NCBI GenBank assembly: GCA_963665295.1
Contig: OY762209.1
Span: 5,056,001-5,120,000 of the forward strand
Direction: 5' to 3'
Source of the DNA: Syntrophorhabdaceae bacterium
Lineage (GTDB): Bacteria; Desulfobacterota; Syntrophorhabdia; Syntrophorhabdales; Syntrophorhabdaceae
DNA: 64,000 bases
In this document: positions 6,877 through 46,997 of the stretch, one piece after another
How the letters are laid out: each line of letters opens with the position of its first letter
Position numbering within the stretch: position 1 is the stretch's first letter
Position numbers and translations under genes: made by a program
The notes under the pieces: model-generated
What the model saw: only the letters and a program-made list of their open reading frames with translations
Told to the model about the DNA's origin: nothing
Databases searched by the model: none

Positions 6877-7794
6877 TTACTGAGGCTTCCCTTTCCCCGC
6901 GAGGTGGGTTACCTGGGCTCTCAGGTTCAAAAGGTACGGGCCCTCGGGCTGCTTTATCCCCTTATTGGTGTCGTACTGTTCCGCCTTTATCCTTGCGACC
7001 GCGCGGTCTATGTCGCCTTCTTCCGTCTTCAGGGCCTCGTATACCCTTTCCTTGAAACGGACCGCCTCAACAAGAGACCGGTCGAAGAAAGCCTTGACCT
7101 CGTCTTTTCCCACAACGACGATGCGGTGGCCCTGGCAAAGGACTTCCGTGTCGAGGCGGGCAAGGCGCGTGAGGGAAGAAAAGTACGCATCATAGTCGGA
7201 AAGGAACTCGGTAATAATGGCGCCCGTGGCGTCGAGAGCCCCCGATGCCTCCGCGGAGAGCAGTATCTTTTCACCGGGGATATAATAGCTCATGTGGTCC
7301 CTCGTATGACCCGGAGTAGCGAAGACTTCAACGGTCGAGCCTGCCTCCGGCCGGATGACCTGCCCGTCTTCGACCTCCATGTCAACTTCGAAGGGACGAA
7401 AGGGTTCGTCTATCAGTTTCGAGGAATCCACCTCAGGGAAGGACGCCACGATGGGCCTGGTACTTTCGTTCAGTTCCGCCATGAGTTCCAGGGCGCGGGG
7501 CCGCTTGAAGACTTCCGCCGCCCTCCGGGACGCCGCCACCTTGAGAGACGGGAACGCGTCTTTGAGGTAAGCGACCGCTCCGCAATGGTCCCAATGACTG
7601 TGGCTGATAAGGAGCAACCAGGGCTGTCTTTTACCGAGGACGGCCCTGATGGCCTCCACATAGAGCCTCCCGCCCGGCGTAATGCCCGCGTCGAAGAGCA
7701 CGGGCCTTTCCCCGTCAAGAAGATGGACGGGATAAGAAGCAAGCCCCAAAATGTAAAAGTGGTCCTTTATAAGGCCCGTTGTCGTAAAAAGCAT
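6877..7794 (-). CDS. MBL-fold metallo-hydrolase
   Basis: HSHWDHCG (HxHxDH), TPGHT and QGH motifs. Confidence 0.88.
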   Translation of the reverse strand: MLFTTTGLIKDHFYILGLASYPVHLLDGERPVLFDAGITPGGRLYVEAIRAVLGKRQPWLLLISHSHWDHCGAVAYLKDAFPSLKVAASRRAAEVFKRPRALELMAELNESTRPIVASFPEVDSSKLIDEPFRPFEVDMEVEDGQVIRPEAGSTVEVFATPGHTRDHMSYYIPGEKILLSAEASGALDATGAIITEFLSDYDAYFSSLTRLARLDTEVLCQGHRIVVVGKDEVKAFFDRSLVEAVRFKERVYEALKTEEGDIDRAVARIKAEQYDTNKGIKQPEGPYLLNLRAQVTHLAGKGKPQ

Positions 7795-7922
7795 GATTCA
7801 CCTTCCTTATGCCCGCCCCCCCCGGAGTTCCCTCATATAACTTATAGTCCGTCACCATGGGACCGGCAATACGTCCCGCCCGGTTGCCTTCCACGCTCCG
7901 GGCATCCATGCCGCAGCCCTCA

Positions 7923-8552
7923 TTACTTTCTTATCACTGCCCACAACCCGCCGTCGGATATTACCTCCACATGTCCTTCCGCCGCGCCGCCCTTCGCCGC
8001 TTTCCGTATGTGGTCCGGCGTAATCGCCGTCTTCCCGATCCTCCGATTGAGGTCCCTTGATTCCTCCCCGATGGCGTCAATGACGGGCTGGGGCGTGTAT
8101 TTTCCGAACCCTCCCCCTACAAAGGCGACCCCGCCAGTATCGAGAACCCGGTATATGGCCGGTAGATCCACGGAAAAGAGGGAGGGGAAAAAGAAGGCCC
8201 CCCGGAAGACGATAAGGTCGATCGCATTATCCCTTATACACGCCAGGGAAGGGTCCGTTTCGATCACGTCGATTCCGTCTGCCACCTTTCGCCTCTTTAT
8301 TTCCTGTTGGAAAAACCCCGGCATACCCTTGGGGAAAGCGGCGATAAGGAAGCTGTCCCCTATCCCTTTGTCCTTAAGATCAATGGCAATCCCTGAAAAA
8401 GGCCCCATGTCGACGACCTTGCCGCGGCTTCGGCCATAGGCTTCCCCCACATGTTCCGCGAGATAGGGACAAACCGGTTCCCAGAGGCGGTCTATCCTCT
8501 GTATAAGACCCGGTATGGAAGAACTGTCGGGCATCGGTTCACTTTCATTCAT
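7923..8552 (-). CDS. Class I SAM-dependent methyltransferase-like protein
   Basis: VVDMGPFSG (degenerate motif I), IDLIVFRGAFFF, IYRVLDTGGVAFVGGGFG. Confidence 0.7.
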   Translation of the reverse strand: MNESEPMPDSSSIPGLIQRIDRLWEPVCPYLAEHVGEAYGRSRGKVVDMGPFSGIAIDLKDKGIGDSFLIAAFPKGMPGFFQQEIKRRKVADGIDVIETDPSLACIRDNAIDLIVFRGAFFFPSLFSVDLPAIYRVLDTGGVAFVGGGFGKYTPQPVIDAIGEESRDLNRRIGKTAITPDHIRKAAKGGAAEGHVEVISDGGLWAVIRK

Positions 8553-8600
8553 AGATAATTGTCCCCTCCTTCTTTTTCAAGGCCTGCCCCGGCCCGCAAC

Positions 8601-9248
8601 TCATACCCCTCGCGCATCAGGGTCCCAGATGAGCTTGTGGAGTTGGACCTGTAACCGGACGTCGAGATGGTCCTCAATGATCCACCGGGCGAGCATGGCA
8701 AGGTCGATCCTGCCGAAAACAGGAGAAAACAAAGGGGGTTTCAAACCCGTGCGGCCCGAAAGCCCTCCGGAAAGGACGGCTTTCGCATATTCATAATCTT
8801 CCCTGTCTCCGATAACAAACTTGATTTCATCAAGGCCCGTCAACTTCGCCTGATTCTCCGGGAGGTTTTTTTCCGACTCTCCGCTCGATGGGCACTTCAC
8901 GTCAAGGATCCTCACGCACCGCTCGTCAACACAGCCGATATCCAGGCTGCCGTTCGTTTCCAGGAGGACCGTGAACCCCTGATCGAGGAGCCTCCGTATA
9001 AGCTCCGGCGTGCCTTCCTGAATCAACGGCTCCCCGCCCGTTATCTCCACAAGGGGGCACCTGTAAGAGGTCACCGCCTCTATGACGTCCGCAATTCCGA
9101 GGTGTTGCCCCTCGTTATCCGCATACCGCGTGTCGCAATAAGAACAACGAAGGTTGCACCCGGCAAGGCGGACAAACACCGAGGGCCTGCCCGCGTAGGA
9201 AGACTCCCCCTGTATGCTCATGAATATCTCATTGACTTTGAGGGTCAC
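8601..9248 (-). CDS. queE: 7-carboxy-7-deazaguanine synthase (radical SAM)
   Basis: EIFMSIQGE, FVRLAGCNLRCSYCDT, ITGGEP, QVQLHKLIW; adjacent to queD. Confidence 0.95.
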   Translation of the reverse strand: MTLKVNEIFMSIQGESSYAGRPSVFVRLAGCNLRCSYCDTRYADNEGQHLGIADVIEAVTSYRCPLVEITGGEPLIQEGTPELIRRLLDQGFTVLLETNGSLDIGCVDERCVRILDVKCPSSGESEKNLPENQAKLTGLDEIKFVIGDREDYEYAKAVLSGGLSGRTGLKPPLFSPVFGRIDLAMLARWIIEDHLDVRLQVQLHKLIWDPDARGV

Positions 9249-9629
9249 CTAATCCTCCCAGTAGAAGGCGCCTGCGTCCGCGGTCTCCGAGACACCGATC
9301 TTCGAGATCCTTGCGTCTTCCGAATTGATGCGCCTGCCCAGTTCCCCATAAAGGTATCGGGCAATGTTCTCCGCCGTGGGATTAACCTTTTGAAACGGTT
9401 CGAGGTCATTGAGATGAGAGTGGTCGAGGGTTCTCAATACGTCTTCCACGCTCTCCCTGATGACACGGAAATCGACACCCATGCCCGTATCGTCAAGGGC
9501 GCGGCACCGGACATAGACCCTGATGGTCCAGTTATGCCCGTGAAGGCGGGCGCAATCTCCTTCGTAGCCCCTCAAGGCGTGGGCAGCGGAAAAACTGGTT
9601 TCCGTGTAGATTTCATACAGACCGGGCAT
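9249..9629 (-). CDS. queD: 6-carboxy-5,6,7,8-tetrahydropterin synthase
   Basis: FSAAHAL, CARLHGHNW, LDHSHLND, PTAENIA; start set at ATG 9629 behind SD GGGAG. Confidence 0.95.
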   Translation of the reverse strand: MPGLYEIYTETSFSAAHALRGYEGDCARLHGHNWTIRVYVRCRALDDTGMGVDFRVIRESVEDVLRTLDHSHLNDLEPFQKVNPTAENIARYLYGELGRRINSEDARISKIGVSETADAGAFYWED

Positions 9630-9754
9630 AAGCTCCCTTCCTTCCTTCGTCACCCTGGGGTGCCCCTATGGTGTACCATATTTTTGCTGCAATTTCTGAG
9701 ATTTTGTGGTCACCGGGTTCGGGCGGGTCCGCATTTCCGCCACGCAAATCCCCT

Positions 9755-9781
9755 TAAGCAAACCGCCCGGCCGGCCGACAA
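9755..9781 (+). promoter_or_regulatory. Sigma-28 (FliA)-type promoter of the chemoreceptor gene
   Basis: TAAG-N15-GCCGACAA versus consensus TAAA-N15-GCCGATAA, 100 nt upstream of an MCP. Confidence 0.75.
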
Positions 9782-9881
9782 CAGTATTGGTGCATGACCG
9801 GGTTCATGCGCCGGCGCAAGGGACGAAAGGGGCTCCATGGCACCAGCCCGGGAAGGTAACAAAAATAACAGGGAGGGTTTT

Positions 9882-11495
9882 ATGACTTTGCAGAACGTGC
9901 GCATCGGGAAAAGGCTCGTGGGAGGATATCTCATATTCATCGTGATTATGCTGGTCCTTTGCATCATAAGCTTCAAGAACGCGAGTGACGTCAACAACAA
10001 AGCGAATGAAATCACCAACATCACCTTTGAAAAGGCGATGCTCGCAAATACCACCCTTATAAACCTGCAAACTATCGACAAAGAAATGATGAAGGCCGTA
10101 TACACAAAAGACAAAGCACCCCTGCAGGTGGTGGCGGAAAGCAGAAAACAATATCGGGCTTCCCTCGAAAAGATCGAACAGATGGAAACGACTCAGCAAG
10201 GCAAGGAGATCATCGCCAAACTCAAGACCGCCGTTGCGGAGGGCAGAGAGTCGAACATGAAGCTCGCCAAAATGCTGGACGAAAACAACTGGACCGAAGC
10301 AGTTCCCTTCTACCACGCGAATGTCGAGCCCCCGATCAAGAAATTCCTCCAGATCGTGGGCGAGCTCGCAAGATACCAGGGACAGGGCGTCCAGCAGAAG
10401 TACACGGAGATCCTGCAGGGTAACCAGCGCGTCCGGATATTGCTCGTTACCGTGGGGGTGATCTCTCTCATCCTCTGCGTGGTGGTCAGCTTCGTGCTCA
10501 CCCGTAGTATCGTGGTGCCCATCCAGAAGAACATCGAGGTAGCGAAGACCCTCGCCGAAGGCAACCTGTCCGTGGACATTATCACGGACCGCAAGGATGA
10601 ATTCGGCGATGAGATGCGGGCATTCAAACTCATGGTGGAAAAATGGAAGGTCCTCATTACCGAGGTCAAGGGCTCCGCCGCGAGCGTTGCCTCCGCGAGC
10701 CACGAACTGAGCGCGAGCGCAGAGCAGTTGGCCGGCGGTGCGTCGGCCCAGGTAGAGCGGACCATCCAGGTATCCACCGCCTCTGAACAGATGTCCCAAG
10801 CTTCTCTCGATATTGCCAAGAATGCGAACAATATATCCGATTCGGCAAAAGACATGGTCAGCACGGCGCAGAACGGTAACGGGATTGTGGCGAAATCGGT
10901 GGAAGAAGTGAAGGAGATCGCGAGGACGGTCCACAAATCGGCGGACTTCGTAAAAGAACTCGGGGATCAGTCGGGAAAGATAGGCGAGATAGTCCTCGTC
11001 ATCAATGAAATCGCCGACCAGACAAACCTCCTCGCCCTGAACGCGGCCATTGAGGCGGCTCGGGCGGGTGAAGCAGGCAGGGGCTTTGCAGTGGTGGCCG
11101 ATGAAGTAAAGAAGCTTGCCGAGAGGACGAGCAAGTCGACCCAGGAGATCGGCGGCATGATCAATGCCATAAAGTCGGGCGTGGACCGGGCAGTGGAATC
11201 CATGGGAGAGGCCTCGGAAAAGGTGAAGACCGGCGTACAGCTTTCCAGCGAGGCAGGCATGGCCCTGAGCGAGATCGTAAGCAGTTCCTCCAACCTTCAA
11301 TCCATGGTGCAGCAGATTGCCACGGCCATAGAAGAAATGAACTCCACCACGGATGAAATAGCGAAAGACATAGAACAGGTTGCCGCCGTGACAAGGGACT
11401 CTTCGAGCGCGGCGGAACAGGTGACCCATGCGGCCCTCGATCTCTCCACCCTGTCCGTCACCCTGGAAAACTCCGTAAGCGGGTTCAAGGTGTAA
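9882..11495 (+). CDS. Methyl-accepting chemotaxis protein (4HB sensor, HAMP, signalling domain)
   Basis: Two TM segments, [56 protein letters not shown] before ATG 9882. Confidence 0.96.
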
Positions 11496-34910: not shown

Positions 34911-37346
34911 ATGCCCCAAAAGAATTTTCCACCAGATCCGCTAAACCAGGTCCGTAAGAAAGGCTCCATCATGCGAAAAGCGGTGACGCCGCTCATCCTG
35001 TTCATATTGTTCATTGCAGCCCTGCCCTTCCAGGGATATCCGGCACAGCCCACCTATCCGATCTCGACGCCCGTTCAGACTACACGGGAGCGCACGGTGA
35101 GCCCTGATCCGATACCCGACGCACCCCAGATTGCCATAGGGGAGGTGGACCAGTACCAGGCGTACGGATACAGTAGTTGGAGCGTCGGGGCCGGTGTCGA
35201 TTACGGGATACTTTCGCCGGAAGGACCCTATGTGGACTCCTACAACGCGGTGGAGACCCTTCTCACGTATTTCACCATGAGCGATATCCATATCACCGAC
35301 AAAGAATCCACTGCCCAGGCCCTCTATATGTCATACGGGCTCGGAACGTGGGGAAACTCCAACACCTCGGCATACTCTCCGATTATCCTGTCCACCACGC
35401 ACGTGCACGACGCGGCGGTGCAGACGATCAACGCCCTCCACAAGGAGGCGCCCTTTGATTTCGGCCTCTCCCTGGGCGACGAGACGAACAGCACCCAGTA
35501 TAATGAGGTCAGGTGGTTTATCGACGTCATGGACGGAAAAAAGATCACCCCAAGTTCGGGGGCGCACAAGGGAGCGGGCTCCATCGATTACCAGAAGCCC
35601 TACCAGTCGGCCGGGCTCGACAAGTCGATTCCCTGGTATGTGGTCATCGGCAACCATGACCAGTTCTGGTGCGGCTCCCTCTACCCCAACGACTATGTCC
35701 GGAGAGTCATGGTCGGCAATACGGTCCTCGATATGGGCAACGACGCAACAGGGGCGCTCTCGCTGGAAACTCGCGGTAACTACATGGGTGTGGTTGACGG
35801 GACGACACCGTACGGAACCGTCATAGACTATGGACCCGCTTTCAGCGCCATGCCCACGCCCATCGTGGCCGCCGACTCGAACCGCCGGAGCCTCAGCACC
35901 TCGACATCCACAACCTTGAACTGGATGAAAGAGTTTTTCAAGACCACGTCGCAACCGAAGGGCCACGGGTTCACCCAGGTAAACCTCGATAATGACTTCG
36001 CGTCCTACACCTTTGAGCCCAAATCAAGCGTGCCGGTGAAGGTCATTGTCCTCGACGACACCTGCAAGGAGAATCCTCTCAGCAGCCTGAGCCATTCATA
36101 CGCAAGAGGCTGCCTGGACCAGCAACGGTACGACTGGCTCGTCAGTGAGCTTAACCGGGGTCAGGCCGAGGGTAAGCTCATGATTGTGGCCGCCCACGTC
36201 CCGGTGGGACCTCAGCTCAATGTCCCCGACTACCCGGTGCCTCCGGGCTATCCCGCAAACTCGACGCCCGTGGCCGTCTTCCTCTCCACCTGCAACGCCC
36301 CCGGCTCAACTGTCGGCGTGCCTTGTAATAAGAGCATCGGGATCGCCAACAATAGCCCCGTTCTCCCTTACTCGGTCGTCACCGACGAGTCGCTCCTTAC
36401 AACGCTCCACAATTACTCGAACCTGATTCTGTGGCTCTCGGGGCACCGCCACCTCAATACCGTCAGCCCCAAGCCCGCGCCGAACGCGGAGACTCCCGAA
36501 TTCGGTTTCTGGGAGGTGGAGACCGCATCCCTCCGGGACCACCCCCAGACCTTCCGCACCTTTAAGATCGTCCGGAACGACAACAATACGGTCTCCATAT
36601 TCGTCACCAACGTGGACCCCTCCGTTGCCGGCACAGGCTCTCCCGCGGATAAATCCCGCGGCTATGCGATCGGCGCACAAAGGATCTCCATGGGCACCAC
36701 CTACGGGGGCCTCACCGATACCTACCCTCACGTCTATAACGCGGAGCTTATCAAACAGCTGGCCGCCCCCTATACCATCACGGTCAACGTGACCGGGCCG
36801 GGCTCCGTGCAGATGGGCCCCTATCAGGCCGCCACATGCTCCTCAAGCAGCCCTTGCTCAGCGTCCTATCTTCCGGGCACGGCGGTAAATCTCGCCGCCA
36901 CTCCCGCCTCCGGGGCCGTCTTTGCCGGGTGGTCAACCTGCGCGGGGACATCAACATGCAACGTTACCATGACCGACAATCTCACAGTAACCGCAGCCTT
37001 CACTCAGGCCCCCACCGCAATCACGACTCCGGCCTACAAGAACCTCGGGGCGGTAAAGAGGGGCAAAAAAGCGACCGCTACTTTCACGGTGAGAAATGCC
37101 ACGACCAAAGGCGTCGCCGATCTCACTCTCGGAACCGCTTCAATTACCGGAGCGGACGCGGGGCAGTTTCAACTTGTAGCGGGCAAAGACCGCTGCTCCG
37201 GCCAGACCATCAAACCGGGCAAGAGCTGCACCTTCCAGGTTTCTTTCGCACCCACTGCGACAAACACAAGGATGGGAACGGTTACCGTACCCTCCAACGA
37301 CTCCGGTTCACCGGCGACCGCACAGGTCGCGGGTACAGGAAAATAG
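34911..37346 (+). CDS. Secreted metallophosphoesterase (TIGR03768/RPA4764-like) with InlB-B-like repeat and C-terminal ASH/choice-of-anchor-D Ig domain, paralog 1
   Basis: SDIHITDKES, LGD, GNHD, AHVP, GHRH motifs; hydrophobic signal; C-terminal CSGQTIKPGKSCTFQVSFAP. Confidence 0.85.
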   Translation: MPQKNFPPDPLNQVRKKGSIMRKAVTPLILFILFIAALPFQGYPAQPTYPISTPVQTTRERTVSPDPIPDAPQIAIGEVDQYQAYGYSSWSVGAGVDYGILSPEGPYVDSYNAVETLLTYFTMSDIHITDKESTAQALYMSYGLGTWGNSNTSAYSPIILSTTHVHDAAVQTINALHKEAPFDFGLSLGDETNSTQYNEVRWFIDVMDGKKITPSSGAHKGAGSIDYQKPYQSAGLDKSIPWYVVIGNHDQFWCGSLYPNDYVRRVMVGNTVLDMGNDATGALSLETRGNYMGVVDGTTPYGTVIDYGPAFSAMPTPIVAADSNRRSLSTSTSTTLNWMKEFFKTTSQPKGHGFTQVNLDNDFASYTFEPKSSVPVKVIVLDDTCKENPLSSLSHSYARGCLDQQRYDWLVSELNRGQAEGKLMIVAAHVPVGPQLNVPDYPVPPGYPANSTPVAVFLSTCNAPGSTVGVPCNKSIGIANNSPVLPYSVVTDESLLTTLHNYSNLILWLSGHRHLNTVSPKPAPNAETPEFGFWEVETASLRDHPQTFRTFKIVRNDNNTVSIFVTNVDPSVAGTGSPADKSRGYAIGAQRISMGTTYGGLTDTYPHVYNAELIKQLAAPYTITVNVTGPGSVQMGPYQAATCSSSSPCSASYLPGTAVNLAATPASGAVFAGWSTCAGTSTCNVTMTDNLTVTAAFTQAPTAITTPAYKNLGAVKRGKKATATFTVRNATTKGVADLTLGTASITGADAGQFQLVAGKDRCSGQTIKPGKSCTFQVSFAPTATNTRMGTVTVPSNDSGSPATAQVAGTGK

Positions 37347-38361: not shown

Positions 38362-38827
38362 AATTTCCTCCTGTTTATGTGAGAAATGGAAACGTCATTA
38401 ATCCTTTTGATACCTTTGGTCCGACCCGCCGCGGGTCTTATCGCGCCCGACCGCCGGCTCCGCCCTGCAAGGCAGCGGTTCTTGCGTGCCTCCATTTCTG
38501 AACCGCGGGCATCTCCCTGAGAATCTGCACGCACGGGTTACCCCGCCGGCTATTCGGCCTTACCAGGAAGATAAGGATTGAGAAATCGGTTTGCAAGGAC
38601 CGGAGGCAGACGACGTACAGGAATACACGGGCGATCAAAGGGCGTTCCCGTGCTCCCCCCTTCGTTATTGTCTGCATACGAGATGGACCGTCACAAAGAT
38701 GACAGCCCTTCCAACAAGTGATTTCACTTTAAACCCGGTGCAGTGTATAATTTCATATTGTGAACCCGTGGCAGGTTCTTTGCAGAAAATGGATTTCAGA
38801 CATTACAGAGACAAGGGAGGAAAGTCT

Positions 38828-41248
38828 GTGATACACAAAAATGTTACCGAAAACCGGAACAGCCTGCTTTCTCAAAAAAGCTGCATAATCCGAAACGTGA
38901 CCGCACTGTCATTCCTGGTCTTCCTGTTTATTATGACCCTGCCGTTCCACGGATACCCGGCAGGACCCACGTACCCCATCTCCACTGATGTCCAGACCAC
39001 AAGGCAGAGGACAGTACGTCCCTCCCCTATACCCGAAGCGCCGGAGATCCCGATATGGCAGGTCGAGAATTATGCCGGATACGGGTACAGTAACTGGACA
39101 TTCGGAGACCCTGTCGACTACGGCAGACTCTTGCCGGACGGCTCCGAACCTGATGTATCCAACCCGGTCGAAACGCTACTAAATTACTTTTCCATAAGCG
39201 ATACTCACATCACCGACAAGGAATCGCCGGCCCAATCGCTCTACTTCGGGGTGCAGGGAGGTTTTGGAAGCGCCAACCTGCCGATGTACTCACCCGTTAT
39301 GCTGTCCACCACCCACGTTCTTGACGCGGTGGTCCAGACCATCAACGCCCTCAACACGGGGACGCACTTCGATTTCGGCATAGGGCTTGGCGATCCGGCG
39401 AACAGCAACCTGTACAACGGGCTCAGGTGGCATATCGACATTCTCGACGGAAAGTGGATCACTCCGAGCTCGGGTGCGCACAAAGGAGCGAAGACTATCG
39501 ACTACCAGAAACCCTACCAATCGGCGGGGCTCGACAAGTCGATTTCATGGTACCAGGTCATCGGCAACCATGACCAGTATTGGTCCGGCGCCTTCTATCC
39601 CAACGATTACCTTCGAAGCACCCTCGTGGGAAACACCGTTCTCAACATGGGCCTCGTGGGAGGGAACCCTTCCCTTGAGGCGCGCGGCATCTATATGGGC
39701 GTAATTGACGGGACTACCCCCTACGGGACCGTCGAGGACGACGGCGCAGCCTCGACCATGGAGCCGCCGAAGGTAGCCGCCGACAGTCGCCGCCGCGCAC
39801 TCACGACCCCCACGTCGTCGTCCCTGAACTGGATGAAGGAGTTTTTCAACACCACTTCGAAACCGAAGGGCCACGGGTTCACCCAGGCCAATCTCGATCA
39901 GGACTTTGTCTCCTACACCTTCGAGCCCAAATCGAGCGTGCCGGTAAAGGTCATAGTCCTCGACGACACGTGCAAGGAAAACCCGTACTACGGTTCGTAT
40001 TCCCACGGCTGCCTGGATCAGACACGGTATGACTGGCTTGTCAACGAACTTGACCAGGGTCAGGCCGAGGGCAAGCTCATGATCGTCGCCGCCCATGTCC
40101 CGGTAGGACCTCAGACAAATGTCCCCGACGCCCCGATTCCGCCGAACCCGCAGGCCCCCGCCGTTCCCAACGATACGGTCATCCCCATGTTCTTCTCCAC
40201 GTGCAACACTAACCCGACTTCCATAGGGGTCACTTGTGCCGCCGGTGTCGATATATCAAACAATGACCCGGTCTTCCCTTATACCGTCGTCACCGACTGG
40301 ACGCTCCTTCAGACTCTTCATAACTACTCGAACCTCATCCTCTGGATGGCGGGGCACCGTCACATGAATACCGTCACCCCGCAACCCGCACCCGTAGACA
40401 AGGGCCCGGAGTTCGGCTTCTGGGAGGTGGAAACCCCATCGACCAGGGACTTCCCTCAGGGGTTTCGCACATTTCAGATCGTTCGTAACGACAACAATAC
40501 GGTTTCCATATTCGTCACCAACGTGGACCCCGCGGTCCAGAACGGTTCTCCCGCGGACAAGTCCCGTGGGTATGCGATCGGCGCATACAGGATAGCAACC
40601 GGCACGCCCGGTCTCACTGATACCACCTCTCATGTATATAACGCGGAGCTTATCAAGCCCCTTGCCGATCCTTATACCATTACGGTCAACGTGACCGGGC
40701 CCGGTACGGTAGACATGGGCCCCTACCAGGCTGCCACATGCTCCGTGAGCAGCCCTTGTTCGGCGGATTATCTCCCGGGCACGCAGGTGGTCCTTGCCCC
40801 CATTCCCTCCACCGGGGCTGCCTTTACCGGGTGGTCGGTCTGTCCGGGGACATCAACGTGCAACATCATCATGACCGGTGATACCACGGTGACGGCAAGA
40901 TTCATCCAGTCTCCGACCGCGACCGCCGCCCCGACCTACAAAAACTTCCCTGTTACAAAGACCGGGAAGAAGGCCGTCTCCACCTTTACGGTCAGCAATA
41001 CCCGGGCGAAAGGCATCGTTGATCTTGCAATCGGTACCATTTCGATAGGCGGGCTAAACGCAGACCAGTTCCAGGTCGTGGAAGGCAAGGACCGTTGTTC
41101 CGGACAGATTGTCAAGCCGGGCAAGAACTGCACCTTTCAGGTTTCTTTCAATCCCACTTTGACGAATACCCGGGTGGCAACGGTTACGATACCCTCGAAC
41201 GACTCCGCTTCACCTACGACCATACCGATCACCGGAGCGGGAAAATAG
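38828..41248 (+). CDS. Secreted metallophosphoesterase (TIGR03768-like), paralog 2
   Basis: Collinear and highly similar to 34911-37346 (SDTHITDKES, GNHD, GHRH); GTG start behind SD GGGAGG. Confidence 0.85.
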   Translation: MIHKNVTENRNSLLSQKSCIIRNVTALSFLVFLFIMTLPFHGYPAGPTYPISTDVQTTRQRTVRPSPIPEAPEIPIWQVENYAGYGYSNWTFGDPVDYGRLLPDGSEPDVSNPVETLLNYFSISDTHITDKESPAQSLYFGVQGGFGSANLPMYSPVMLSTTHVLDAVVQTINALNTGTHFDFGIGLGDPANSNLYNGLRWHIDILDGKWITPSSGAHKGAKTIDYQKPYQSAGLDKSISWYQVIGNHDQYWSGAFYPNDYLRSTLVGNTVLNMGLVGGNPSLEARGIYMGVIDGTTPYGTVEDDGAASTMEPPKVAADSRRRALTTPTSSSLNWMKEFFNTTSKPKGHGFTQANLDQDFVSYTFEPKSSVPVKVIVLDDTCKENPYYGSYSHGCLDQTRYDWLVNELDQGQAEGKLMIVAAHVPVGPQTNVPDAPIPPNPQAPAVPNDTVIPMFFSTCNTNPTSIGVTCAAGVDISNNDPVFPYTVVTDWTLLQTLHNYSNLILWMAGHRHMNTVTPQPAPVDKGPEFGFWEVETPSTRDFPQGFRTFQIVRNDNNTVSIFVTNVDPAVQNGSPADKSRGYAIGAYRIATGTPGLTDTTSHVYNAELIKPLADPYTITVNVTGPGTVDMGPYQAATCSVSSPCSADYLPGTQVVLAPIPSTGAAFTGWSVCPGTSTCNIIMTGDTTVTARFIQSPTATAAPTYKNFPVTKTGKKAVSTFTVSNTRAKGIVDLAIGTISIGGLNADQFQVVEGKDRCSGQIVKPGKNCTFQVSFNPTLTNTRVATVTIPSNDSASPTTIPITGAGK
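40987..41084 (+). repeat. 98-bp direct repeat, copy 1 (inside phosphoesterase 2 C-terminal domain)
   Basis: Matches 46295-46392 without gaps, about 10 mismatches by manual count. Confidence 0.9.
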
Positions 41249-41400: not shown

Positions 41401-42909
41401 TCAGGGCGCCCGGCAGAGCCATTTTCTCCTCTCTTCTTCGTATTTCTCCTCTGCAATCGCCAATCGGGAAGGGTCCACAAGCCACCGCCAGGGAGCATCC
41501 ATATGCCACTGCCGGTGGACGTATTGCCCTATGCACTTGTCGTCAACAAACACTTTCATGGCTCCCCCCGGTACTTTGCCGAATAGAACGAATCTGAGCC
41601 TCAATCTGCCTTGCCCGAAAAAACGCAACATAGACTTGATGTGAAGATATCCGTCGAGCCTTCTCAAAACAATATTCCTGGTATTTCTCAATATTCTTGA
41701 GATGCGGGCATAGGCATAGACGCACATGCCCGCTAAGCCCCCGGCAACCGGGCGATGCCTCCCTTGCCCGTGCACGGCCGTGACACGGCCTTCCACCGCA
41801 CTCATGGGGACCGGGAAGGGGTCGTTTTCAGAGTTGTTGTCGCCGCGGGTCAGGAGACCGTCGGCGTGTACGGCCATGATCCGGTGGACCACCCTGATGC
41901 CCTTTACAGGATCGTGAAAACAGGCGACGTCGCCGCGGCGGGGATTCTTACCGTTGTAGGGTTCAACATCCAGAAAATCGGGCGCTTTCAACGTGGGATA
42001 CATGCTGTTTCCAGAGAGCGTCACACCCCAAGGCATGACCGGAACCCTCACGGAACTGCCGCCGGCAGATGGGTGCGCCACAGGGTATCCGCTCAGAAGG
42101 GGCTCTTTTTTTAACGACTCTTCGACCAGCTTCCAGAATTCTCCGGTCAGACCCAGATGAAGGATGTACGCATGCAGCGCCGCCGTCAGTGCACAGACGA
42201 TCGAGAATTGCCTCAAGCGGTTTTCCCGCACCTCGGGAAGGGATAATTGCCGGTCGAAAACACCGTTTACCTGTCCTACCGAGTCGATAAGCATGGCTGC
42301 AGCCTGGGTCGGATTGATTTCTTCTAAAGTATCTTCCGGGGAGCGACGGAGAAAGTAGAGAGCAGCGAGCGGTACGGCAGCGCCGGTATCCCAGGCGCCG
42401 CCCGGGCCGTCGTCATAAAAGCGGCTCCAAGTCGGCCAGGGATGTGCCAGATACTTTCCCTCCGGATCCCGTACGATAAGGACCGTATCGTCACAGAGCG
42501 AATGCCAGGGAAAAGGGAGCCTTAAAGATGCCGTGGTTTTTCCGGTACCTCCCGGCGCCGCAAAAAGAACCCCTTTCCCTTCGTACTCTGCGAGCGCGCC
42601 ATGCACAAGTACGCCGCCGTGGGTTTGGACTTCATGGGCAATGACCAGGCTAACCTTCATAGCCCTGGATACAAGGTCGAACCTATTTTGGGGTCGGGAG
42701 AAGCGGTAGACAATCATATCATCGTCTACGGAAAAGGCTTCCTCTTGCTCTTCCCGGGCGGTCATAACGCAAAGAGAACGACTCGCGACGCCGGTCTTGA
42801 GCATCATGGCGTTCGCCAGGAGTTCCACGACGGGCTCCATTTCCTTTGTTCCCGCGTGGATTTGTCTTCGGGAGCCGTCAGTCAGAGACAGCAGGTATGA
42901 TTTCCCCAT
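41401..42909 (-). CDS. scmC: SynChlorMet ScmC-like P-loop (HprK-like) protein fused to S24/S26 peptidase domain
   Basis: VHGAL, AAPGGTGKTT (Walker A), LCDD, AHPWPTWS; C-terminal SGNSMYPTL...VVHRI...TRGDNN signal-peptidase-like motifs. Confidence 0.8.
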   Translation of the reverse strand: MGKSYLLSLTDGSRRQIHAGTKEMEPVVELLANAMMLKTGVASRSLCVMTAREEQEEAFSVDDDMIVYRFSRPQNRFDLVSRAMKVSLVIAHEVQTHGGVLVHGALAEYEGKGVLFAAPGGTGKTTASLRLPFPWHSLCDDTVLIVRDPEGKYLAHPWPTWSRFYDDGPGGAWDTGAAVPLAALYFLRRSPEDTLEEINPTQAAAMLIDSVGQVNGVFDRQLSLPEVRENRLRQFSIVCALTAALHAYILHLGLTGEFWKLVEESLKKEPLLSGYPVAHPSAGGSSVRVPVMPWGVTLSGNSMYPTLKAPDFLDVEPYNGKNPRRGDVACFHDPVKGIRVVHRIMAVHADGLLTRGDNNSENDPFPVPMSAVEGRVTAVHGQGRHRPVAGGLAGMCVYAYARISRILRNTRNIVLRRLDGYLHIKSMLRFFGQGRLRLRFVLFGKVPGGAMKVFVDDKCIGQYVHRQWHMDAPWRWLVDPSRLAIAEEKYEEERRKWLCRAP

Positions 42910-42950
42910 GGTCTGTCAACCCTCTCATTCAACATTGCCGGAGAGGGTCT

Positions 42951-44144
42951 TCAACGGACCGTATCCGGCATGAGGCGTGTTGTCCCTTGCGTGCTCCGGC
43001 CTTTCCTGCGGCGACTTGCCGGGAAAAGCCCTTGCCTGTCGGCCTCCCGGCATCGCGTGCCCGCCCATACCATACCTCCCCCTTTCCGGTAGTTTGCGGC
43101 AACGCAGCCGGTGCGGCACACGCGCGAGAGGATGCAATCCCCGCATATTCCCGGATACCCGAGATAATCTTCAAGCTCCCGCCGGAGACTTTGCAGTTTC
43201 GGGTGATGGAACCATATCTCCCGCACGCTGTCGCCCAGACGTCCATAGACAAGGGAGGGGACCGTCTGCCCAATGCCGCACATAGCGATCTCGCCCGTGC
43301 CCAGGATACCCAGAATACCGATGACGCCGCAATCCCCCGTGCGGCCCCCGGTTTCCATGAGCGTCCTGAAAGACCGGACGGCCGGCGGCAAATTGAGGAT
43401 GAAACCCTTGATGGACGTCTTTTCCTTCAGTTCGCCATACACATATTTCTCAAGGGCCCGCAGTTCCGTGATGCCGAGGGTTTCCCTGCGCGCCGTCATC
43501 TGCTTGCCCCGCCCGCTGTCGGTGACAGGATTGAATTTTACCGAGGCCACGCCATGCTTTGCCGCCAGGGATGCAACGCCGTCTATTTGAGAAACGTTTC
43601 CTCTATGGAGGCTCATGATGACCTGCGTGTTGTCGTATCCCGCTTCTTTGAGGCAGTCAAGTCCGCTCAAGGCGGCGGCAAAAGCGCCTCGGGCGCCTCT
43701 GAAGGCGTCGTGCGCCTCCTCGTCGGGATCGTCGAGGCTCACGGAAATGGAGCCTACTTTTGTGTTGTTCTTGAGCCAGTGCGCCAGCTCCCGCGTCATC
43801 AGGGTGCCGTTGGTCTCCATGTTCATGGTGAGGCCCATGTCGGAGAGCCCCGCCGCAATCTCCTTGAAGCGTGGATGAAGAAGGGGCTCGCCGCCCGTGA
43901 GTTTTGCCCTTGTCAATCCCAGGTTTTTGGCCTCTTTCACCGCGGCAAAAAGCGGTTCCGGGTCGATGCATTCCCGCGGGTCGGGCCTGCCGTCGATAAA
44001 ACGCGGCGTGACCCAGCAGTGGCGGCACATGAGGTTGCAGCCGGAGGTGAGATAGAGGTAAAAGGAGCGGAGCGGCGGCACACCTTGCGGCAGCTCCGGG
44101 AAAGATGACGATTCAACGGGAATTTCCGGATCGCAAAGGGACAT
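42951..44144 (-). CDS. scmF: Radical SAM/SPASM peptide maturase, ScmF-like
   Basis: YLTSGCNLMCRHCW, TGGEP, SPASM cysteines CGV...MCGIG...CGDCILSRVCRTGCVA...C; start ATG 44144 after SD GAGGA. Confidence 0.85.
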   Translation of the reverse strand: MSLCDPEIPVESSSFPELPQGVPPLRSFYLYLTSGCNLMCRHCWVTPRFIDGRPDPRECIDPEPLFAAVKEAKNLGLTRAKLTGGEPLLHPRFKEIAAGLSDMGLTMNMETNGTLMTRELAHWLKNNTKVGSISVSLDDPDEEAHDAFRGARGAFAAALSGLDCLKEAGYDNTQVIMSLHRGNVSQIDGVASLAAKHGVASVKFNPVTDSGRGKQMTARRETLGITELRALEKYVYGELKEKTSIKGFILNLPPAVRSFRTLMETGGRTGDCGVIGILGILGTGEIAMCGIGQTVPSLVYGRLGDSVREIWFHHPKLQSLRRELEDYLGYPGICGDCILSRVCRTGCVAANYRKGGGMVWAGTRCREADRQGLFPASRRRKGRSTQGTTRLMPDTVR

Positions 44145-45258
44145 TCTTATCCTCTTTATATTTCTTGTAGCAGTTCCTTGGGTCAACGGCGTTTAACGTG
44201 CCGCATTGGGCGAAAACGACCGCCGGGCAGCCTCCTGTGCAAAATCCGGCATAGCTGCAGTCCCCGCATCCGGCGACCGTGGTGATCGGGGTTTCATAAC
44301 GTGTGCGCAGGATATTGATTTCCCGTCCTGAAAGCCACGCCTCGCGAAGCGGCGTAGAGCCGATCTTCCCCATGACCATAGTAGGCAGCATAGTGCAAGG
44401 GACGATAGCGCCGTCGTGGCGAATCGCCATCTTATTGAAAACTCCGCCACAGGCGGCAAGTTTTCCCCTGCCCGGCAGGCCGGTCTTGCCTTCGGCGAGG
44501 GCTCCTTCGATCTGAGCGACGTTTCTGGTGAAGGCCAGGGGTCCCGCTGCGGCTTTAATGCGTCCCGGGTAGCGCAGGGCAAGCTCTTCCATGGTTTTGA
44601 CGGCCACGTCCCACTCTTCGTTGGAGAGGATCACGTCCTGACCGGAGCAGCGGGCGGAGCCGAAGGGGTTGGCGCCGTCGGTGCTGAAGGATTTCAGCCC
44701 TGCGTCTTCGAGGAGCAGGACGGCGACGTTTTCCAGATCACGCACATTGTAGCGATTGACCGTGACCCGGACGGTAACAGGAAAATCATGTTTCTTGAGC
44801 AGGCGCAACCCGCGCAAAGCCCGCTCGAAGCTCGCAGGCGAACGAGTTGAGTCGTGGATCTCAGGCGTGGCTCCGTCGATGGATACCTGAATGGAATCGA
44901 GGCGCAGCCGGCGCTTGCCTTCACGGAAGGCGTCGATGACCTTGTCGTCGATGAGGGTGCCGTTGGAGAGAACGCTGTAGCGCATGCGGTTTTCGATCAC
45001 GCTGTCAACCAGTGTGAAAAAATCAGGACGAGTAAAGACCTCGCCGCCGCTTAAGGTGAGGCGCTCGACGCCTATTGCACCCGCCTCAACAAAAAACTCA
45101 CGCCACCGATCCGTAGGAAGATCGTCAAGGGCGGTCATTTCATCGGCGTAGAAGCAATAGCGGCACCGGAGGTTGCATTTACCCGTCAGACTGACCTGAA
45201 GGTTCGCGGGTGCGCCGCGTACACCGAAAGGATTGTTTTCACGTCTCCGAGGTTTCAT
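44113..45258 (-). CDS. scmE: Radical SAM/SPASM peptide maturase, ScmE-like
   Basis: LTGKCNLRCRYC, DLPTDRW, NRMRYSVLSNGTL, SPASM CGG...PCTML...CGDCSYAGFCTGGCPA...C. Confidence 0.85.
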   Translation of the reverse strand: MKPRRRENNPFGVRGAPANLQVSLTGKCNLRCRYCFYADEMTALDDLPTDRWREFFVEAGAIGVERLTLSGGEVFTRPDFFTLVDSVIENRMRYSVLSNGTLIDDKVIDAFREGKRRLRLDSIQVSIDGATPEIHDSTRSPASFERALRGLRLLKKHDFPVTVRVTVNRYNVRDLENVAVLLLEDAGLKSFSTDGANPFGSARCSGQDVILSNEEWDVAVKTMEELALRYPGRIKAAAGPLAFTRNVAQIEGALAEGKTGLPGRGKLAACGGVFNKMAIRHDGAIVPCTMLPTMVMGKIGSTPLREAWLSGREINILRTRYETPITTVAGCGDCSYAGFCTGGCPAVVFAQCGTLNAVDPRNCYKKYKEDKNVPLRSGNSR

Positions 45259-45514
45259 CGTGGACGATTACAAAATCGGGCAGCAGGGATTCAATAAACC
45301 TCTCGACATCCTCCTGCACATGCGTGGCGCCTTCGGTGTTTGCCGCCAGATATGCCGAGATTTCCGCGGAGGTCCGGGGCCGGGCGATTCTGTCCCATAT
45401 GAGCCGTCCCGTTTCGTTGATCAGCACCACTTCGTCCGTATCGGGGTTGAAAAGCAGCGCCCCTTCGTCCTCGTCCCTTAGAGACACTACAGGATTTACT
45501 GCGTAACGCTTCAT
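45239..45514 (-). CDS. PqqD-family RiPP recognition element (RRE) 2
   Basis: 91 aa: NPVVSLRDEDEGALLFNPDT..LINETGRLIWDRI...VQEDVERFIESL. Confidence 0.88.
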   Translation of the reverse strand: MKRYAVNPVVSLRDEDEGALLFNPDTDEVVLINETGRLIWDRIARPRTSAEISAYLAANTEGATHVQEDVERFIESLLPDFVIVHDETSET

Positions 45515-45807
45515 AGATTGACCTCATACCCGATTAATCCCGTATCCAGGAGAATATCCAGAATGGCCCGCACATCGTCCTCCAGCGTCGGTGGCGCATC
45601 AATAAAACATTTTGCCGTTTCCTCGATGATGTCCCCCACGGTGCGGACGCCGTTCACGAGCCGCCAGATCAAAAGTCCGGTTGAGTTGAGCGCAAGACCG
45701 GTCGGAACGTCCAGATTGACGATAACCGCCCAGCCGCCTGCGTCTTCCTGCAGGGCATACGCCGGATTGCCGACAGGCAGCGAATCTAAACCGATTTCCC
45801 CGATCAT
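45511..45807 (-). CDS. scmD: PqqD-family RiPP recognition element (RRE) 1, ScmD-like
   Basis: 98 aa: LNSTGLLIWRLVNGVRTVGDII...LEDDVRAILDILLDTGLIG. Confidence 0.85.
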   Translation of the reverse strand: MIGEIGLDSLPVGNPAYALQEDAGGWAVIVNLDVPTGLALNSTGLLIWRLVNGVRTVGDIIEETAKCFIDAPPTLEDDVRAILDILLDTGLIGYEVNL

Positions 45808-45963
45808 TCAGATTTCCATTCAATGTCGTTAAGTTCTATTTATAGCGTATAAATCACTAATTGGCAATCACAATAATATATTGGCGGAATAATTTGTTGA
45901 AGTTGCAATCGTAAATGTGGTATTCAAATGATAAATCACAGATCAAAAGGAGGTTCGGTCAAC

Positions 45964-46164
45964 ATGAAGAAAACATCCTCCCCCACATCGACACCGGTCA
46001 TGGACAGCCCGGAGACTAAAGCGGCCAAGCGGTACGTCCCACCCACTGCGCTTCGGTTCGAATACTCTGTGGCGCACGCAGCCTGCAGCTATGGATCCGA
46101 CGCCCCCACCGGGTGCAGTACCGGCGCCGTCGCCTTCGGCTGCACCAATGGGACCAACGAATAA
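45964..46164 (+). CDS. Candidate RiPP precursor peptide (66 aa; KRYVPP leader, three C-[S/T]-x-G repeats)
   Basis: Strong SD AAAGGAGGT; MKKTSSPTSTPVMDSPETKAAKRYVPPTALRFEYSVAHAACSYGSDAPTGCSTGAVAFGCTNGTNE; divergent from the RRE/rSAM operon. Confidence 0.78.
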   Translation: MKKTSSPTSTPVMDSPETKAAKRYVPPTALRFEYSVAHAACSYGSDAPTGCSTGAVAFGCTNGTNE

Positions 46165-46294
46165 GCAGATAAAGAATGGGGTTTCTTAAGATACCCTGAC
46201 TGCCCCTCTCGCTGCCCGTCCTTACAGCCCGAGGGACTCTCCTACTATCAGGACTATCAACTCCGTGCGGAAGGGCTCTTTGGCTGGGACCGTG

Positions 46295-46392
46295 TACGGT
46301 CAACAATACCCGGACGAAAGGCATGGTTGATCTTGTAATCGGCACCATTTCCATAGGCGGGTTGAACGCGGACCGGTTCCAGGTCGTGGAAG
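46295..46392 (+). repeat. 98-bp direct repeat, copy 2 (orphan fragment of phosphoesterase C-terminal domain)
   Basis: Encodes TVNNTRTKGMVDLVIGTISIGGLNADRFQVVE versus TVSNTRAKGIVDLAIGTISIGGLNADQFQVVE in paralog 2. Confidence 0.9.
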
Positions 46393-46532
46393 TGTCCGCC
46401 CGTACCCTGTCTCTTCCCGGCCTTTCCTCACTGTTAAAGGCGGATTCGCCTTGAAATCAACGAGTGCAGGTGGTAGTAAATAGACAAACCCCGGTCTGAC
46501 CCCGGGCATTGCGTGCTTTTCGCGGAGAAACA

Positions 46533-46997
46533 ATGCAGAACTCCACCGATAATGAAGAGTTGTTTTCCGTCATCAACGAGATGTTCAACGAGATCCCCTT
46601 CAACAGAGTGCTGGGCCTTAGAGTCGAATCACTGGGTCATGACCGGGTCGAGGCTTCATTCGAGATGCGGGATGACCTGCTCGGACACTATTCCCGTCGC
46701 ATGCTCCATGGAGGCGTCATTTCGGCTGTTATCGACGTTACGGGTGGCCTCGCGGCATTCATGGGTGTTGAAGAAAGGATGAGCGGTGAGAGCCTGGAAG
46801 CCAAACTCAAAAAGTTCGGTAAGGTAAGCACCCTTGATCTGCGCGTCGATTTCCTGCGCCCCGGTCTCGGCAACCGGTTTGTCGTAAGGGCCCACACCTT
46901 GAAGACGGGGAGCAAGGTTGCGGTTACAAGAATCGAGTTGAGAAACGATGAGGATGATCTCATTGCCGCGGGCACGGGATCATATATAGTGGCATAA
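46533..46997 (+). CDS. PaaI/hot-dog fold thioesterase (YigI-like)
   Basis: IPFNRVLG, LHGGVISAVID, STLDLRVDFLRPG, IAAGTGSY. Confidence 0.9.
   Translation: MQNSTDNEELFSVINEMFNEIPFNRVLGLRVESLGHDRVEASFEMRDDLLGHYSRRMLHGGVISAVIDVTGGLAAFMGVEERMSGESLEAKLKKFGKVSTLDLRVDFLRPGLGNRFVVRAHTLKTGSKVAVTRIELRNDEDDLIAAGTGSYIVA

Follow-up and report, generated by a model that had tools for sequence, protein, structure and literature searches.

A 66-amino-acid open reading frame (ORF) in the genome of a Syntrophorhabdaceae bacterium is very likely, judging from sequence comparisons, the ScmA-type precursor peptide gene of a divergent SynChlorMet-like cassette. The ORF lies on the plus strand of a 64,000-nucleotide stretch, here called the window (positions 5,056,001 to 5,120,000 of contig OY762209.1, assembly GCA_963665295.1). 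The cassette consists of five genes on the minus strand, which are divergent from the precursor and located 156 bp away. Two radical SAM/SPASM genes, a PqqD gene, an ScmC gene and a small peptide gene, i.e., the components of a SynChlorMet neighborhood, are all found within positions 41401-46164. The ORF is a new divergent member of a catalogued family, the chemistry of which is uncharacterized according to our literature searches.

The frame runs from an ATG at 45964 to a TAA at 46164, comprises 66 codons and reads MKKTSSPTSTPVMDSPETKAAKRYVPPTALRFEYSVAHAACSYGSDAPTGCSTGAVAFGCTNGTNE. An earlier note on this DNA, made from the letters of the sequence, had described this frame with a strong Shine-Dalgarno sequence, and the coordinates, the start and the Shine-Dalgarno sequence AAAGGAGG were verified. 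A listing of ORFs starts the frame earlier, at an ATG in position 45928, and gives 78 amino acids. The start at 45964 is preferred over 45928, because the Shine-Dalgarno sequence would fall within the ORF if the upstream start was used. The translation contains the leader stretch KRYVPPTAL and the repeats at Cys41, Cys51 and Cys60 that the earlier note had pointed out. Extended to KRYVPPTALRF, the former is the window version of a family motif, K-x-Y-x-x-P-x-h-x-x-h, while the latter begin three modules, C-S-Y-G, C-S-T-G and C-T-N-G, respectively. The distance from Tyr to the first Cys is 17 residues (Y24 to C41), the Cys residues are spaced by 10 and 9 residues, Gly occupies the third position after Cys (Gly+3) in all three modules, and the tail is 6 residues long.

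All stop-to-stop frames of at least 25 amino acids in the 5,508,164-bp genome (n = 120,437) were searched with a profile built from 36 peptides of other genomes, from which the window peptide and its relatives in genomes G013 and G023 had been left out (G000 is the window's own genome, other G labels are related genomes and L labels are surveyed loci). The precursor frame was ranked first (E 6.3e-6, 29.0 bits), and the next frames had E-values of 0.086 and 0.11. Since the best-scoring frame of the genome adjoins the one cassette there in which ScmC exceeds its cut-off, chance is excluded and the precursor frame is more than a chance open frame. This agrees with the proposal in the earlier note that the ORF encodes the precursor of the adjacent cassette. 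No paralogue of the precursor peptide was found in a search of the window genome. In an alignment of 30 peptides, comprising the window peptide and 29 cassette-linked ones, P27, C41, G44, C51, G54, C60, and G63 were invariant.

The ScmE enzyme was searched for in 61 related genomes, including G000, and matches were found in nine, G000 among them. G013 and G023 have an ScmE 68-69% identical to that of the window, which belongs to the same divergent ScmE class, and both carry a homologue of 56 or 57 amino acids between ScmF and ScmC, with a K-I-P-Y-E-P-P leader and three C-x-x-G Cys residues spaced by 10 and 10. The G013 and G023 peptides are identical at 32 of 56 positions and differ by 14 synonymous-only and 10 non-synonymous codon differences, with every Cys, Gly and Y-E-P-P leader residue retained. 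Longer peptides of the same plan directly follow ScmF in the canonical cassettes of G037, G040, and G046. For the ScmE/ScmF pairs of G043, G047, and G051, and the first pair of G046, no peptide was seen and no ScmC adjoins them.

A search of one-genome-per-species contigs with the ScmE alignment, A1, gave 80 loci from many bacterial phyla and from methanogenic archaea. The window and 88 loci supplied 16,205 ORFs, among which a seed profile of six peptides retrieved dozens of short ORFs of like design. A second profile of 36 peptides was then used to score a locus as peptide-bearing at E < 0.01. By this measure the comparable peptides near homologous cassettes that the earlier note had called for were found at 52 of the 80 ScmE loci, a count that is partly circular, the profile being derived from hits at those loci, and to that extent weighs against our assignment. 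Where ScmE and ScmF occur together, 49 of 60 loci had a peptide, as had 32 of the 36 in which ScmC is present too. The survey comprised 67 distinct peptides. As judged from these comparisons, the window peptide belongs to a widespread cassette-linked family with a Y-x-x-P leader and repeated C-x-x-G modules.

The anatomy of the family was determined for 58 distinct peptides with a recognizable leader; 8 of 66 peptides fell outside the leader search pattern and were excluded. The leader consensus is K-K-h-K-Y-E-[P/K]-P-x-L-x-D-L, of which Y-x-x-P is the most conserved feature, with Tyr in 53 and Pro in all of the 58 peptides. The first Cys is mostly found 17-23 residues past the Tyr, and position -2 relative to this Cys is Gly or Ala in 40 of 58 peptides, while position -4 is Ala or Gly in 27 of 58. 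A core contains 1-16 Cys residues with a median of 5, most often spaced by 10 residues (118 cases), followed by 11 (66) and 9 (20), and the tail past the last Cys is mostly 6-8 residues. The repeated Cys module noticed in the earlier note is thus the hallmark of the family. Its more specific C-[S/T]-x-G pattern holds for the three modules of the window, but not for the family, where Gly is found at Cys+3 in 277 of 332 modules and Ser or Thr at Cys+1 in only 83 of 333; Ala is found at position +6 in 133 of 328. The Ser or Thr next to Cys had also been suggested as the target of the kinase-like domain. As the position is not conserved it is a poor candidate, and this idea was dropped.

The earlier note had regarded the precursor as missing. 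This was not the case, since NCBIfam contains a model for it, TIGR04252 (SCM_precur_ScmA; 49 positions, cut-off 35 bits). The Y-x-x-P leader and C-x-x-G modules of the window peptide are common to the peptides that match this model below threshold. None of 66 cassette-linked peptides reached the 35-bit cut-off; 25 matched sub-threshold at E ≤ 10, 11 of them at E < 0.01, with a best score of 24.6 bits. The ScmA family is catalogued, but most of its diversity lies outside TIGR04252. When a collection of 5.8 billion proteins was searched with a profile, 34 proteins were obtained at E ≤ 0.001, and the seven with a source name were termed "hypothetical protein" (six) or had an uninformative metaclust entry (one). 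Because TIGR04252 misses essentially all of the diversity of the family, automatic annotation leaves these precursors unnamed. In the literature searched, no paper naming the SynChlorMet cassette or TIGR04248-TIGR04252 was found, "ScmE" and "ScmF" being unrelated acronyms among the matches listed, and no Scm terms occurred in the main texts or supplements of two RiPP mapping papers (PMC9062424, PMC10288494; RiPP, a peptide that is synthesized ribosomally and modified post-translationally). The highest TIGR04252 score seen, 32.5 bits, was that of a 97-amino-acid ScmA-like gene on contig C1 of G040 (locus L030, 1468-1761, plus strand). This contig is not that of the G040 cassette, which has its own peptide, and the gene may be an orphan extra precursor.

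The features of the precursor and the cassette are given in Table 1, where the PqqD-type proteins are termed RiPP recognition elements (RREs).

Table 1. Features of the precursor gene and the neighboring cassette in the window.
Feature	Position	Strand	Basis
Precursor peptide gene, very likely divergent ScmA-type (66 aa + stop)	45964..46164	+	Translation; family profile; alignment
Shine-Dalgarno sequence AAAGGAGG, 10 nt 5' of ATG	45946..45953	+	Read from sequence
Leader recognition motif KRYVPPTALRF, residues 22-32; putative RRE docking site	46027..46059	+	Family conservation; lasso/LPP analogy
Putative leader cleavage site, A37-H38-A39/A40; P3 and P1 small	46072..46080	+	Family -4/-2 bias; S26 domain
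Predicted core, residues 40-66 (27 aa)	46081..46161	+	Three modules from C41, C51, C60; 6-residue tail
Divergent intergenic region, 156 bp, precursor to first PqqD gene	45808..45963	.	AT-richer
PqqD-type RRE 1, 98 aa, copy nearer canonical ScmD	45511..45807	-	Pfam PqqD 50.8 bits; TIGR04248 47 bits
PqqD-type RRE 2, 91 aa, extra copy typical of window-type subgroup	45239..45514	-	Pfam PqqD 42.9 bits; TIGR04248 34 bits
ScmE-like radical SAM/SPASM enzyme, 381 aa	44113..45258	-	TIGR04250 365.4 bits (cut-off 400); Pfam Radical_SAM, SPASM
ScmF-like radical SAM/SPASM enzyme, ORF 411 aa	42951..44186	-	TIGR04251 298.9 bits (cut-off 400); Pfam Radical_SAM
ScmC fused to S26 signal-peptidase-type domain + C-terminal tail, 502 aa	41401..42909	-	TIGR04249 148.7 bits (cut-off 125)

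The cassette shares its gene set with SynChlorMet (TIGR04248-TIGR04252): a pair of radical SAM/SPASM enzymes, PqqD and ScmC, as well as a small peptide with Cys repeats. It differs by having two discrete PqqDs and a fusion of ScmC to an S26-type domain, by a precursor that is divergent upstream rather than located between ScmF and ScmC, and by three modules compared to a median of 5 Cys. Both PqqDs passed Pfam PqqD and had ScmD (TIGR04248) as their best NCBIfam match, but missed its cut-off of 100 bits. Single PqqDs from canonical cassettes scored better to RRE 1 than to RRE 2, and orthologues of RRE 2 were found in L018, L019, L040, L042, L043, L045, and L063. TIGR04250 and TIGR04251 were each by far the top model for their protein, with a full-length match, although both proteins fell below the cut-offs; for the ScmE-like protein the runner-up family scored 122 bits. 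The CxxxCxxC motif is present in both enzymes and is, together with seven SPASM cysteines of ScmE, invariant in the ScmE alignment. The true start of ScmF probably lies later than the start of the ORF. Far from the cassette, another ORF in the window (8601-9248, minus strand) had a phmmer match to the window ScmF; this is probably a radical SAM gene that is unrelated.

The TIGR04249 match covers residues 91-266 of ScmC and is the sole match above the cut-off in the genome. ScmC contains a P-loop domain with a fold like that of PEP carboxykinase (PEPCK) and HPr kinase (HprK) at approximately residues 1-273, with a Walker-A loop GGTGKT, and an S26-type domain at approximately residues 295-380. 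In the predicted model (pLDDT 86.5) residues 1-273 superpose on the nucleotide-binding part of PEPCKs (Foldseek E ~1e-7; Z 14.6, root mean square deviation 5.0 and 250 residues aligned in a second fold comparison). HPr kinase and PEPCK have a common fold. The P-loop region of HPr kinase has a faint sequence similarity to ScmC (E 0.49; all HPr kinase matches were weak, at E 0.49-0.67), and HPr kinase was not among the best 50 matches listed by each of two fold searches with ScmC, which were filled by PEPCK entries. The S26 domain scored 48.8 bits to TIGR02228, archaeal signal peptidase I (cut-off 51.85), and 23.4 bits to Pfam Peptidase_S26 (cut-off 22.9).

Two discrete PqqDs and an ScmC-S26 fusion define a window-type subgroup with G013, G023, L042, L045, and L063 as further members, and L043 at least with respect to the PqqDs. 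Downstream of the fusion gene, G013 has genes for an ABC exporter and an NTP_transf_5 protein (188.8 bits), and the G023 cassette also has both. Neither was found beside the window cassette, the best matches in the genome being located at 0.39 Mb and 2.87 Mb, respectively. In L063, the Methanospirillum stamsii chromosome, positions 7292-10990 carry two PqqDs, the ScmC-S26 fusion and a single radical SAM match (ScmE). A peptide candidate with a weak score (E 0.085) is located between its ScmE and ScmC genes, and the locus may represent a variant of the cassette with one enzyme.

In the mechanism that we propose, leader residues 22-32 would dock to either or both of the PqqD-type RREs, and these would present the core to ScmE and ScmF. 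Docking of the leader is proposed because Y-x-x-P-x-h fits the motif [Y/W]xxPx[L/V/I/F/A], which, in the available part of a study on the LPP pathway, is recognized by the discrete RREs of lasso and LPP pathways, with YxxP required for the RRE-precursor complex (PMC13381572). The docking role given to the Y-x-x-P motif in the earlier note is consistent with this and with its conservation in the family. For lasso peptides, the available part of PMC5067487 describes binding of leaders by B1 (PqqD-type) proteins with nanomolar affinity. A complex prediction for PqqD1, PqqD2, and peptide residues 14-50 with separate alignments gave scores of 0.27 and 0.20, short of the 0.32 needed for a verdict.

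ScmE and ScmF would modify each of the three Cys modules. The partner of each Cys is probably a residue close by on its C-terminal side, because Cys and Gly+3 are near-invariant and every module keeps 6-8 residues past the Cys. The likeliest product would be a small unnested thioether ring per module, formed from the Cys sulfur toward the C-terminal side with Gly+3 as the favored acceptor. We put this forward tentatively, as a possibility short of an expectation, and other radical chemistry may take its place. Streptosactin offers a parallel: its S-C-alpha links Cys25-Ser28 and Cys31-Gly34 each run from i to i+3 and are unnested (according to the available part of PMC8172795). Streptosactin (GggA/GggB) and other sactipeptides and ranthipeptides have, like the Scm system, a radical SAM/SPASM maturase acting on a Cys-bearing core, and streptosactin also has the Cys-x-x-Gly ring span. 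The window holds the prerequisites, i.e., a Cys in each module and two SPASM enzymes, while a thioether in an Scm peptide is predicted. The sactipeptide maturase model StsB gave 96.9 bits with ScmE and 75.9 bits with ScmF; the likeness of the Scm enzymes to StsB, SkfB and PapB is at the superfamily level only. The Scm system further differs in having two enzymes, discrete RREs and modules of 9-11 residues in up to 16 repeats.

The P-loop domain of ScmC would spend ATP on the peptide and its S26-type domain would then cut the leader at A37-H38-A39/A40, in the order known from LPP. There, in the available part of PMC13381572, the HprK-like kinase LppK phosphorylates Ser3 of the core and the SpI-like peptidase LppS removes the leader, the kinase acting before the peptidase. 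The fusion of kinase-like and peptidase parts in ScmC would fit a coupling of kinase action to leader removal, and a signal-peptidase-type site would be in line with the small residues found 4 and 2 positions before the first Cys. Unlike in the closest relatives, an exporter is not adjacent to the cassette.

Several observations weigh against our assignment of the ORF. The window peptide had no match to TIGR04252 at E ≤ 10 and was not among the four weak matches of the genome, a single-sequence search of the 5.8 billion proteins returned only the window peptide itself, and a scan of metagenome contigs gave 593 pattern matches with zero confirmed close relatives. As these protein and metagenome searches found none, the divergent layout is not known from any orthologue. 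The placement is also rare. Fifty-six of 63 peptide ORFs shared the strand of the cassette gene nearest to them, with 25 just after ScmF and 15 just before ScmC, whereas a position divergent and upstream of PqqD was found in three (L043 Methanoregula, L068 Chlorobium, and L111 Syntrophus), at distances of 538-2,638 bp compared to 156 bp in the window. The view in the earlier note that divergent orientation explains why such precursors are overlooked does not hold up against these numbers, and the window peptide is itself already a called protein in a public protein collection. Eleven of the 60 loci with ScmE and ScmF had no peptide (L039, L053, L057, L060, L070, L073, L079, L080, L084, L112, and L113), and NCBIfam cut-offs were missed by four of the five cassette proteins, i.e., ScmE, ScmF and both PqqDs. 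The closest solved relatives of ScmE and ScmF by sequence, which also count in favor of our reading, are two radical SAM enzymes, the thioether synthase SkfB (E 1e-12 to 3e-13) and PqqE, a likeness that is at the superfamily level only and says nothing on chemistry. Finally, no Ser or Thr stands at a fixed position as a kinase target.

The lack of a close orthologue would also be expected if the ORF was non-coding and had arisen by chance within a promoter region between divergent genes. It is short, and the surrounding DNA gave few signals: a promoter scan found one minus-strand promoter-like site (45900 to 45873), no better than in shuffled sequences, and none on the plus strand, a terminator scan 3' of the precursor gave no signal above shuffled controls, and an Rfam scan of 45600-46700 gave no match. 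A chance frame is nevertheless very unlikely, as it would have to account for a strong Shine-Dalgarno sequence at the proper distance, for the top rank among all frames of the genome with a profile from other genomes, right beside the cassette, and for the retention of seven invariant family columns. It is even less credible that the ORF encodes a precursor of a lasso peptide or of another RRE-dependent pathway which merely happens to lie beside the cassette. The Y-x-x-P-x-h leader is lasso-like, lasso pathways likewise have a stand-alone binding protein of the PqqD family, and one family member weakly matches the lasso leader model NF033521 (E 0.072). Against this, lasso cyclase and B2 protease families had no match in NCBIfam and Pfam searches of the five cassette proteins and the two proteins downstream, the core is unrelated to those of lasso peptides and lacks a macrolactam-type layout, and peptides of the same family are embedded within Scm cassettes elsewhere.

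A different question is what the cassette does to an ScmA-like peptide. The peptide could be phosphorylated and subsequently cleaved as in LPP, with its Cys residues free or metal-binding and the radical SAM enzymes performing epimerization, C-C bond formation or the like. The LPP core set consists of an SpI-like peptidase, a discrete RRE, a kinase that is HprK-like, an NTP transferase and an exporter resembling MsbA (PMC13381572, available part). The window cassette has a discrete RRE, an S26/archaeal SpI-type domain, and a P-loop protein of PEPCK/HprK-like fold, the ABC exporter and NTP_transf_5 protein following ScmC complete the set in G013, and the C-C bond former PqqE is as near to ScmE and ScmF as SkfB is. 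Differences are that the LPP clusters in the available part of PMC13381572 are found in Bacillota, have neither radical SAM enzymes nor a Cys-repeat core, and have a longer leader consensus, YxxPxVLxHQxIxFETxxS, and that kinase-like and peptidase parts are one protein in the window. We consider phosphorylation with unlinked Cys residues unlikely, as near-invariance within the core is limited to Cys and Gly+3 and Ser is not fixed, the fixed final tail of 6-8 residues suggests that Cys works with the residues just after it, and 49 of 60 loci conserve both SPASM enzymes alongside the peptide.

Other observations concern the surroundings of the precursor and variation within the family. The GC content is 0.48 in 45500-45999 compared to 0.56-0.61 in the adjoining bins. 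Downstream of the peptide gene are genes for a hotdog thioesterase and a universal stress protein, which do not look related to the cassette. A 36-amino-acid remnant (46296-46403, plus strand), 130 bp past the precursor stop, shares 78% identity (E 5e-14) with residues 800-835 of an 885-amino-acid protein encoded at 38591-41248, by a gene whose end lies just past the far side of the cassette, and matches an 811-amino-acid paralogue at 34911-37346 more weakly. Since copies of one gene family flank the cassette, this hints that cassette and precursor arrived or were rearranged as a unit. Outside the window, the minus strand of G000 contig C1 carries a second RiPP-like locus at approximately 660100-666450 (part of which is L002). 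One of its genes encodes a radical SAM protein of 668 amino acids, a stretch of which weakly resembles ScmC (28 bits). A further radical SAM ORF is present, as are two ORFs that look, on visual inspection, like an S26 peptidase and a PqqD. The locus also has a small frame (662656-662880), whose leader reads Y-C-K-P-E-L and which contains several Cys residues; this frame was the third-best match of the family profile (E 0.11). Among the surveyed loci, L071, L078, L081, L086, L099, L106, and L109 have two to four ScmA-like genes, some with a duplicated ScmC or ScmF, so the number of precursors varies widely among cassettes. A 159-amino-acid protein of G046 (L023, 9654-10133, minus strand, the same as L062, 6148-6627) combines a PqqD domain with a C-terminal ScmA-like leader and first modules (E 6e-07), which would make it a fusion of an RRE with a precursor-like tail.

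Both the cassette type and the precursor family are catalogued in NCBIfam, and no report of a chemical product was found in the literature searched. For the part of the cassette that does not involve radical SAM enzymes, the LPP pathway provides a tested precedent, as described in the available part of PMC13381572. We regard it as rather doubtful, but worth stating, that ScmA peptides constitute an uncharacterized RiPP class which merges two logics, rings formed per module and kinase-gated removal of the leader, with a fused kinase-like/peptidase protein and a divergent promoter in the present case. According to the former, Cys sulfur may be joined to C-alpha of Gly+3, or take part in an undescribed crosslink, to give a bead-like string of 3 to 16 rings. 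According to the latter, a kinase-like protein may gate removal of the leader by a signal-peptidase-type enzyme. The window instance is a minimal three-module substrate of 66 amino acids with a predicted 27-amino-acid core, two separate RREs and one kinase-like/peptidase fusion. With this small substrate, the two RREs and the single fusion protein, these genes form a compact set for co-expression chemistry.

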